In this document: piece by piece, positions 1-1,172 of the stretch
Layout of the letters: every line of letters starts with the position of its first letter
How positions within the stretch are numbered: the stretch's first letter is position 1
Origin: a phage
DNA: 1,172 nucleotides
Reading direction: 5' to 3' (one strand)
Sequence record: OR846250.1
The notes under the pieces: generated by a model
Database searches by the model: none
Told to the model about the DNA's origin: nothing
What the model saw: the letters and a program-made list of their open reading frames with translations, nothing else
Position numbers and translations under genes: made by a program

Positions 1-5
1 GCATT

Positions 6-29
6 AAAACCGCCCCATGAAGCGGGCGG
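6..29 (-). terminator. Terminator-like hairpin plus T-run overlapping the cos cleavage position (minus-strand sense)
   Basis: Plus 10-15 ccgccc pairs with 24-29 gggcgg (6-bp GC stem, 8-nt loop 16-23); on the minus strand the stem is followed by TTTT (plus 6-9 aaaa). The stem's 3' arm ends at position 29, the first base of the cohesive end. Could equally be a packaging-recognition structure; function uncertain. Confidence 0.3.
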
Positions 30-47
30 GCGAGGCGGGGAAAGCAC
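29..47. other. cos cohesive-end sequence (cosN) of a P2/P4-type phage: GGCGAGGCGGGGAAAGCAC
   Basis: Exact 19-mer ggcgaggcggggaaagcac read at 29-47. I recall this as the 19-nt 5'-protruding cohesive end shared by P2 and P4; recalled knowledge, not database-verified. Confidence 0.6.
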
Positions 48-189
48 TGCGCGCTGGCGGTGGTGCTGATTTTATTTTTTCAGCGCCTGAGCGCGTCGTG
101 ATGGCGTTTAGATTGTTCGCCGGGGCGTTGGTGTGTCTGTGGGATGTTTTGTGCGGTGGTGAGCGTGTGAGGGCGTGATGGCGGGTTGT
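48..189. promoter_or_regulatory. cos-flanking non-coding region, putative terminase recognition/binding region (cosB-like)
   Basis: No convincing ORF. Strong strand asymmetry (about 80% G+T on the + strand across roughly 108-190 by manual count). Exact 10-bp direct repeat cgtgatggcg at 97-106 and 174-183; exact 9-bp direct repeat gcggtggtg at 57-65 and 153-161. Function is inferred from position next to cos only. Confidence 0.3.
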
Positions 190-211
190 AAAAAAGCCGC
201 CCGCAGGCGGC
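190..211 (-). terminator. Rho-independent terminator immediately downstream of the portal gene
   Basis: Perfect 6-bp all-GC stem (plus 196-201 gccgcc pairs with 206-211 ggcggc) with 4-nt loop (202-205). On the minus strand this reads GCCGCC-TGCG-GGCGGC followed directly by TTTTTT (plus 190-195 aaaaaa). It begins 5 nt after the stop codon. Confidence 0.6.
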
Positions 212-216
212 GATGT

Positions 217-1172
217 TCAGCCGTTGTCAGTGTCCAGTGAGTAGTTTTTAAAGCGGATGACCTCCTGACCGAGCCAGCCGTTTATCTCGCGGATCCTGTC
301 CTGTAGCGGGATAAGCTCATTGCGGACAAAGACCTTTGCCACTTTCTCAATATCACCCAGCGACCCGACGTTCTCCGGCTTGCCGCCCATCAACTGAAAG
401 GGGATGCGGTGCGCGTCCAGCAGGTCAGCGGCGCTGGCTTTTTTGATATTAAAAAAATCGTCCTTCGTTGCCACTTCACTGAGCGGGATAATTTTAATGC
501 CGTCAGCTTTCCCCTGCGGGGCATAGAGAAACAGATTTTTAAAGTTGTTGCGGCCTTTTGACTTCACCATGTTTTCGCGAAGCATTTCGATATCGTTGCG
601 GTCCTGCACGGCATCGGTGACGTACATGATGTATCCGGCATGAGCGCCGTTTTCGTAATACTTGCGGCGGAACAGCGTGGCTGACTCATTCAGCCAGGCA
701 GAGTTAAGGGCGCTGAGATATTCCGGCAGGCCGTACAGCTCCTGATTAATATCCGGCTCCAGCAGGTGAAACACGGAGCCGGGCGCGAAGGCTGTCGGCT
801 CGTTGAAGGACGGCACCCACCAGTAAACATCCTCCTCCACGCCACGACGGGTATATTTGGCCGGTGAGGTTTCCAGTCTGATGACCTTACCGGTGGTGCT
901 GTAACGCTTTTCCAGAAACGCATTACCGAACACCAGAAAATCCAGCACAAAGCGGCTGAAATCCTGTTGCGAAAGCCACGGATGCGGGATAAATGTCGAG
1001 GCCAGAATATTGCGTTTAACGTAAATCGGTGAGCTGTGATGTACGGCAGCACGCAGGCTTTTTGCCAGACCGGTAAAGCTGACCGGTGGCTCATACCATC
1101 TGCCGTTACTGATGCACTCGACGTAATCCAGAATGTCACGGCGGTCGAGTACCGGCACCGGCTCACCAAAGG
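217..1172 (-). CDS. Q: Phage capsid portal protein, P2 gpQ-like (partial; N-terminus lies beyond the window's right edge)
   Basis: Single long open frame of 313 codons in the ORF track, with stop TGA at 217-219 (plus-strand tca). The frame stays open upstream of 1158 (codons read ...F G E P V P V L D...), and the codon at 1156-1158 is GTG, so the true start is outside the window. Product assignment rests on position and orientation next to the cos site plus my recognition of the protein as portal-like; not verified by alignment. P2 gpQ is about 344 aa from memory, consistent with roughly 25-30 missing N-terminal codons. Confidence 0.8.
   Translation of the reverse strand, partial: FGEPVPVLDRRDILDYVECISNGRWYEPPVSFTGLAKSLRAAVHHSSPIYVKRNILASTFIPHPWLSQQDFSRFVLDFLVFGNAFLEKRYSTTGKVIRLETSPAKYTRRGVEEDVYWWVPSFNEPTAFAPGSVFHLLEPDINQELYGLPEYLSALNSAWLNESATLFRRKYYENGAHAGYIMYVTDAVQDRNDIEMLRENMVKSKGRNNFKNLFLYAPQGKADGIKIIPLSEVATKDDFFNIKKASAADLLDAHRIPFQLMGGKPENVGSLGDIEKVAKVFVRNELIPLQDRIREINGWLGQEVIRFKNYSLDTDNG

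Follow-up and report, generated by a model that had tools for sequence, protein, structure and literature searches.

An uncut P2/P4-type cos site beside the portal gene of a P2-like phage

Introduction

The cos site from which bacteriophage P2 and its satellite P4 are packaged was characterized from the 1970s to 1990 and is a known, ordinary, and well-described packaging site. Both have cohesive ends of 19 nt, and the P2 terminase cuts a 55-bp cos, preferably in closed circles, to yield the linear molecule that is packaged (PMC2231350). With 19 bases the cohesive ends of P2 are the longest described, and the 5' ends of phage lambda comprise 12 bases (PMC5557969). Overhangs of the 5' type also occur in the P2-like phage phiRSA1 (PMC5694545). 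The core of cos is common to P2 and P4, which lets P4 use the terminase of P2 (PMC9122126; the sharing is also reported in PMC9594776 and PMC5694545). The 55-bp core appears in PMC5694545, PMC9594776, and PMC2231350, which give the credit to Ziermann & Calendar 1990. Furthermore, the defense-gene hotspots of P4-like satellites and of P2-like phages abut cos (PMC9122126).

Here we compare these systems with a stretch of phage DNA of 1172 nucleotides, referred to as the window. Positions 1..54 of the window almost certainly represent the intact, joined cos of a P2-like (Peduovirus) helper phage, in which 29..47 is the 19-nt cohesive-end segment. The features that make up the site are as follows.

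1..28, + strand: last bases of the right arm, GCATTAAAACCGCCCCATGAAGCGGGCG, matching P2 33547..33574 except at position 17, and matching the P4 record at its end.
29..47, + strand: 19-nt cohesive-end sequence, from its identity with P2, fiAA91-ss, and P4 and from linear records ending at 29.
1..54, no strand assigned: 54 of the 55 bp of the conserved P2/P4 cos core, which consists of 29 bp of right arm, the 19-mer, and 7 bp of left arm (TGCGCGC).
28..29, + strand: predicted top-strand nick, from linear records that start at 29, the P4 record that ends at 28, and the annotation of phage 186.
47..48, - strand: predicted bottom-strand nick, from the end of P2 cosR at window position 47 and the annotation of phage 186.
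22..28, + strand: GCGGGCG, imperfect two-fold partner of 48..54, read from the sequence and highly conserved.
48..54, + strand: TGCGCGC, left-arm stretch of the core and symmetry partner of 22..28, with 1.8-1.9 bits.

Results and Discussion

Identity of the cohesive end

The sequence GGCGAGGCGGGGAAAGCAC occurs once in the window, as a perfect match at 29..47 (+ strand), and was found in 0 of 200 dinucleotide-preserving shuffles of the window even when up to 3 mismatches were tolerated. It equals base for base the left cohesive end of P2 (AF063097, annotated 'cosL; left cohesive end', 1..19) and also, with no differing base, the right one ('cosR; right cohesive end', 33575..33593). The annotated 'cosL' of fiAA91-ss (KF322032) and bases 1..19 of P4 (NC_001609), whose record starts with the 19-mer, are identical to it as well. 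The window thus carries the exact P2/P4 version of the consensus GGCG(A/T)GGCGGGGAAAGCA(C/T) of P2/P4-type 19-mers. Searches of 50,697 phage records with the window (megablast and blastn) retrieved 110-112 records, all of them P2-like, with Escherichia, Yersinia, Salmonella, Klebsiella, and Erwinia as hosts. Among the 60 matches listed, at least 25 linear P2-like/Peduovirus records have a terminus, position 1 or the last base, exactly at window position 29. Termini of virion DNA at the edges of the 19-mer are therefore seen for close relatives, both in these linear records and in the cosL/cosR annotation of P2 and fiAA91-ss. An earlier note on this DNA had recognized the 19-mer as the P2/P4 cohesive end and had proposed a BLASTN comparison with P2-like records, in which the 19-mer should coincide with annotated termini and the flank should be conserved on the Q side. 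The exact matches to the termini of P2, fiAA91-ss, and P4 and the records terminating at 29 bear out this identification. On the Q side, P2 shows the same TGCGCGC followed by tQ and Q, and neither of the outcomes that the note had named as speaking against its reading, a 19-mer unrelated to annotated termini or a deviating left end in the reference phage, was encountered. Positions 29..47 are the segment between the two predicted staggered terminase nicks and the counterpart of cosN of lambda.

How much weight the 19-mer carries on its own was addressed by a survey with the pattern GGCGWGGCGGGGAAAGCAY, in which the variants of phage 186 were allowed, across a species-representative genome collection (596 Gb) and IMG/VR. 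Of the 218 sites obtained, 196 have a right-arm flank at least 75% identical to that of the window, 5 are recognizably diverged cos sites, and about 17 lie in unrelated, mostly GC-rich genomes and lack any similarity in the flank. The last figure is close to the approximately 17 matches expected by chance according to our own estimate (2 x 5.96e11 x 4/4^19). Since so many matches to the degenerate 19-mer in 596 Gb have unrelated flanks, the 19-mer by itself is insufficient proof of a cos site at database scale. In the window, the flanks, the neighboring gene, and the orientation of this gene are all consistent with the assignment.

The conserved core and its variants

An information-content profile was calculated from 159 distinct cos sites of helpers and satellites in genomes and viral contigs. 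Values of 1.0-2.0 bits were obtained at most positions from 0 to 54, with lower values at 13, at 17-19 (the loop), and at 28, and they drop to about 0.6 bits from window position 55 on; the part of the profile inside the 19-mer was set by the search pattern and carries no weight, whereas the flanks were unconstrained. This conserved block of 29 + 19 + 7 = 55 bp reproduces the published core with a larger and sharper sample. The alignment of the core covers P2, P4, 186, Wphi, and L-413C. The consensus of the 159 sites, TGCATTAAAACCGNCCC-loop-AAGCGGGCR followed by the 19-mer and YGCGCGC, has 54 of its 55 positions in the window, and all of these agree. The window misses its first base, a T at position 0, by a single nucleotide, and a conserved TGCA further upstream is also absent from the window. 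According to positions 28/33/47, the 159 distinct sites fall mainly into the types G-A-C (61 sites), A-T-T (52), and A-A-C (37). The cos of the window is of the G-A-C or P2 type, and A-T-T is the type of phage 186.

The cos site of P2 (AF063097 / NC_001895) closely resembles that of the window. Its 19-mer is identical, the right-arm flank differs at the one loop base at position 17, the cohesive end is followed by TGCGCGC, the order cos - tQ - Q is the same, and the part of gpQ encoded in the window shows 100% identity. The non-coding left arm (48..216) is less similar, with approximately 89% identity and small indels. P4 (NC_001609) shares the 19-mer, the right-arm sequence TGCATTAAAACCGCCCC...AAGCGGGCG, and the subsequent (C/T)GCGCGC, which together make up the 55-bp core; TGCGCGC at 48..54 is the sole left-arm sequence common to P2 and P4. 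Past position 54, however, P4 continues with unrelated DNA (the gop/beta cargo region), and the portal gene is absent. A further difference is that CTGAGCGTGTC is situated on the right arm of P4, 8 nt left of the core, whereas the window has this element on the left arm. Phage 186 (NC_001317; Eganvirus) resembles the window in the 19-nt length of its cohesive end and in the location of this end relative to the portal gene W and the terminator tW, but its 19-mer (GGCGTGGCGGGGAAAGCAT) differs by two bases, and an A occupies position 28.

The divergence noted for P4 applies to satellites in general. Their left arms diverge completely past position 54, and nearly every element differs in the DNA right of TGCGCGC. 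This variability of the cargo fits the defense-gene hotspots reported to abut cos (PMC9122126).

Some contigs labeled as non-enterobacterial also contained the 19-mer with a right-arm core flank at least 75% identical to that of the window. They are assigned to Vagococcus sp. WN89Y (L034 and L085), Clostridiales UMGS1151 (L059), a Lachnospiraceae MAG (L088), a Bacillota MAG (L019), Chryseobacterium sp. (L080), and Martelella alba (L053); the sites in L034 and L059 belong to P4-like satellites and have psu on the left. Most likely, the presence of cos in such contigs results from contamination or mis-binning and does not reflect the true host range.

The portal gene and the helper-type layout

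The region to the right of the core contains two features.

196..211, - strand: tQ, rho-independent terminator of the P-Q (terminase-portal) operon, from the annotated tQ of P2 (160..181) and a terminator scan.
217..1172, - strand: 3' part of the portal gene Q, with the stop codon at 217..219; the first approximately 27 codons lie past the right edge of the window.

The Q reading frame matches the Pfam family PF04860 (Phage_portal; E = 2.6e-14), it is called portal protein in all matching records, and 316 of 316 residues are identical to residues 28-343 of P2 gpQ. On the DNA level (220..1170) the identity to P2-type records is approximately 96%, so that the roughly 4% of differing positions in Q are synonymous. 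Q of P2 (187..1221, complement) has the same orientation toward cos as the gene in the window, where the stop at 217 is located 170 nt past the end of the 19-mer, with tQ in between. The predicted fold of tQ has a free energy of -14.4 kcal/mol (z = -3.4), and conservation among helpers peaks at 191-210 over this terminator. According to tblastn analyses of the surveyed sites, 126 have the portal gene on the right reading toward cos and 38 have psu of P4 on the left; the reverse layout occurred 0 times. The portal gene was thus found on the same side and in the same orientation as in the window in 126/126 helper-type loci, with a median of 195 nt from the start of the 19-mer to where the Q match ends. 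The window shows the complete left-end layout of P2-like helpers, i.e., Q near cos and reading toward it, followed by tQ. This confirms the proposal in the earlier note that the cohesive end fixes the position of the window on the phage map, at the left end of the genome with the portal gene Q directed leftward.

In 20 of the 126 helper loci the portal gene is more than 260 nt, and up to approximately 2.2 kb, away from cos. Extra DNA is sometimes inserted between cos and Q in helper loci, as is also known for phiCTX and phiRSY1 (PMC5694545).

In view of the identical 19-mer and the nearly identical right-arm flank of P4, the cos of the window could in principle be that of a P4-like satellite. 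This reading has a practically negligible probability, because satellites carry unrelated cargo right of TGCGCGC and psu on the left, whereas the right side of the window is the left arm of P2, including tQ and the portal gene. A portal gene was found in 0 satellite loci, and its presence at 217..1172 refutes the assignment to a satellite.

Nick sites and predicted cleavage

The record of phage 186 is annotated with the statement 'top strand cut at 5' end and bottom strand cut at 3' end'. This staggered geometry results in 5' overhangs. When both strands of the window are read 5' to 3' up to the predicted nick, the top strand is GCGGGCG^G and the bottom strand GCGCGCA^G; five of the seven bases and the base after the nick are symmetric. 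The comparison suggests a symmetric nick context GCGSGCR^G, and this imperfect two-fold symmetry would account for the core reaching exactly 7 bp into the left arm. The asymmetric right-arm part at 0..21 (TGCATTAAAACCGCCCCATGAA) appears to be the best candidate for the recognition determinant and may carry most of the recognition.

In lambda, cosN likewise displays imperfect two-fold symmetry at the nick sites. The predicted symmetry in the window, combined with an asymmetric recognition flank, would thus parallel the organization of cosN, cosB, and cosQ in that phage, and both systems have in common a terminase-specific site at which the two strands are nicked to give complementary 5' overhangs. 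However, the sequences show no similarity, the overhangs differ in length (12 versus 19 nt), and in P2 and P4 the conserved flank is on the right-arm side. Lambda also packages from concatemers, whereas P2 and P4 favor closed circular monomers (PMC2231350).

From what is known of P2 and P4, the following course of events is predicted for the phage represented by the window. The terminase, composed of the endonuclease gpM and the ATPase gpP, would recognize the approximately 55-bp core, preferentially in covalently closed circular monomers, and would introduce nicks 19 bp apart, at 28|29 in the top strand and 48|47 in the bottom strand according to the predicted positions. The product would be a linear genome with complementary 19-nt 5' overhangs, whose left end carries the + strand of 29..47 and whose right end carries the complement. 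This molecule would be threaded into the procapsid through the portal gpQ, which is encoded right beside cos. After injection the overhangs would anneal and be ligated, restoring the contiguous sequence. As attP is far from cos, an integrated prophage also keeps cos joined and internal. The satellite P4, having this core, is served by the same terminase.

The joined form and the source of the DNA

In the window, the last bases of the right genome end (1..28) directly precede the 19-mer and the left end follows it, and hence cos is uncut and joined. The last 28 bases of the P4 record differ from window positions 1..28 solely in the 3-base loop. The view expressed in the earlier note that this is joined-cos DNA is therefore correct, with 1..28 representing the right end of the phage as in P2 and P4. 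The same note had listed a prophage, a circular form, or an assembly closed across cos as possible sources, a correct list that the window alone does not narrow.

Comparisons with other genomes are more informative in this regard. The window matched 2185 of 5426 complete E. coli genomes, and 3137 of the 3144 places are chromosomal. The best E. coli matches were seven chromosomal prophages with 99.9% identity, and the best match to a phage record had 98.2%. As the nearest relatives are chromosomal prophages and nearly all matching places in E. coli are chromosomal, the likeliest source of the DNA is a prophage. Within the E. coli collection and the fetched loci, the closest match agrees at 1171 of 1172 positions, the sole difference being a G in place of the A at position 17; at this variable position, A is the commonest base among cos sites. 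This closest relative is a P2-like prophage that adjoins cpxP in E. coli O157:H7 strain F8492. Its cos is located mid-prophage, preceded by the integrase, repressor/cox, replication gene A, and a 2.2-kb AAA-ATPase cargo, and followed by the portal, terminase ATPase, scaffold, capsid, terminase endonuclease, lysis, and tail genes. P and M, which encode the terminase, and the genes for the capsid adjoin Q both in this relative and in P2, and they are outside the 1172 bases of the window.

A circular replicative form, or a virion-DNA assembly that was joined across cos and linearized at some arbitrary point, would have the same appearance as a prophage. Indeed, an internal cos with full coverage of window positions 1..220 was found in approximately 24 of the 60 phage records listed. 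When 5' cos ends are filled in, the 19-mer is duplicated at both termini, and reads spanning cos cause assemblers to place the site at a random contig position (PhageTerm, PMC5557969). The internal cos in these phage records can be attributed to such cos-crossing reads, by which the contig is opened elsewhere (PMC5557969). For the window such an origin is nevertheless unlikely given the 98.2% identity of the best phage record versus 99.9% for seven chromosomal prophages, and the preponderance of chromosomal places in E. coli.

If the source is a prophage, it might be a defective or cryptic P2-like remnant with a genuine cos, which has lost self-packaging and remains inert unless a P2-like helper supplies the terminase. 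Partial remnants are common, as at least 80% of the window was covered in only 1567 of the 2185 matching E. coli genomes, and 1172 bases are too short to show whether a prophage is complete. However, the core, tQ, and the reading frame of Q are all intact in the window, gpQ is 100% identical to that of the functional P2, and the prophage of the 99.9% relative F8492 appears to be complete, with head, tail, lysis, replication, and integration genes all present. We regard a remnant as quite unlikely.

The dyad at the top-strand nick and other candidate elements

One further feature overlaps the right-arm part of the core.

10..29, - strand: GC-rich dyad CCGCCC / GGGCGG with an 8-nt loop, followed by TTTTAATGC, found in the terminator scan and overlapping the top-strand nick.

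The function of this dyad may be seen in two ways. It could be kept mainly as a minus-strand terminator that backs up tQ and halts read-through of the P-Q operon across the joined cos into the cargo region, and not for recognition by the terminase. The stem of six G-C pairs followed by TTTTAATGC, as detected in the terminator scan, and the predicted fold of -13.6 kcal/mol would be in line with such a role. However, the z-score of this fold is merely -1.8, and no compensatory changes were found in the dyad in the comparison of cos sites, where positions 13 and 28 vary alone and uncompensated. Moreover, the dyad overlaps the nick site and is conserved to the same extent in P4-type satellites, in which it is not entered by transcription from a Q operon. 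A role mainly as a terminator is thus doubtful; the terminator and recognition functions are mutually compatible. Owing to the absence of compensatory substitutions and the modest z-score, a selected hairpin was rejected, and the dyad looks conserved as sequence and not as a hairpin.

Three other candidates in this part of the window were considered. The cohesive end contributes its last four bases to a weak + strand hairpin at 44..66 (GCACTGCGC...GGTGGTGC). With the T-run behind it (TGATTTTATTTTTT; whole region 44..80), this hairpin would be terminator-like for transcription arriving from the right arm. It is partly kept in helpers and absent in satellites; being weak, with G-U pairs and a z-score of -1.8, and missing from satellites, it was rejected as a + strand terminator and is recorded here as an observation. 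A structured RNA in the non-coding region 1..260 was dismissed as well, as no Rfam match with E <= 1 was obtained for this region. Finally, an open reading frame of 53 amino acids (17..178, + strand) extends across cos and is labeled 'hypothetical protein' in several phage records. Its frame is not conserved and has no Pfam match; the start position is ATG or GTG in 46 of 126 helper loci, and the frame varies in length from 13 to 90 codons. It was not accepted as a gene, and its annotation is probably an artifact.

An 11-mer found only beside cos in the fetched loci

The left arm contains one additional conserved element.

87..97, + strand: CTGAGCGCGTC, conserved left-arm element and low-confidence candidate for an accessory packaging signal.

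The left arms of helpers (102 distinct sequences with a median identity of 66% to the window), when aligned with gaps, show conservation peaks at 81-100 and at 161-170. Exact copies of the 11-mer (CTGAGCG[CT]GTC, i.e., CTGAGCGYGTC) number 91 across the 1.94 Mb of fetched loci, where about 2 would be expected by chance; copies are often related by descent, so that such counts overstate their independence. All 91 copies are within approximately 100 nt of cos and on the + strand, and 0 were found elsewhere in the 1.94 Mb. With one mismatch allowed, 88 of 120 helpers, representing all three cos types, have the element at window position 86/87, and 23 of 37 satellites have it at -19 or 96/97. The position -19, on the other side of the core, is occupied in 14/14 satellites of the G-A-C type, among them P4 (L005, copy at 11577..11587), and 96/97 in 9 of 13 satellites of the A-A-C type; 13 satellites lack the element. 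The 11-mer is thus 33 nt right of the core in helpers and 8 nt left of it in the P4-type satellites of E. coli. Shared ancestry of a flank does not account for this switch of sides between helpers and satellites of the P4 type.

On the basis of these positions, the 11-mer at 87..97 might tentatively be regarded as a second, position-flexible packaging signal that is bound, e.g., by a host factor or by the small subunit of the terminase; in our estimation, such a role is improbable. The element may already be described in Ziermann & Calendar 1990.

The same region of the left arm contains a composite repeat, GCGGTGGTG...AGCGYGT...CGTGATGGCG, in two copies at 57..106 and 153..183, the former interrupted by a T-rich stretch of 24 nt (66..89). 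A partial second copy of the 11-mer, AGCGTGT, is located at 162 within the repeat at 153..183, and positions 100..185 are strongly G/T-rich on the + strand. The arrangement recalls cosB of lambda with its repeated R sites.

Conclusions

The cos site anchors the window to the point where the two ends of a P2-like genome, right and left, meet and gives the strand and direction of the neighboring gene. It also marks the edge of a known defense-gene hotspot, which is situated just left of cos in P2-like phages (PMC9122126). In the F8492 prophage, this slot between gene A and cos (L006, 17579..19786; outside the window) contains the 2.2-kb gene annotated as 'AAA family ATPase', which replaces old/tin of P2 at the known P2 hotspot (PMC9122126). 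For the biology of the cos site itself the analysis adds nothing new, the comparative profile being a reproduction of the published 55-bp core. The sole mildly unexpected item is the 11-mer that was found only beside cos. In the P4-type satellites of E. coli, the DNA right of the core is a swap-in slot for defense genes. If the 11-mer indeed were a packaging signal, the satellite would have retained the accessory signal of its helper while freeing the adjacent DNA for cargo.
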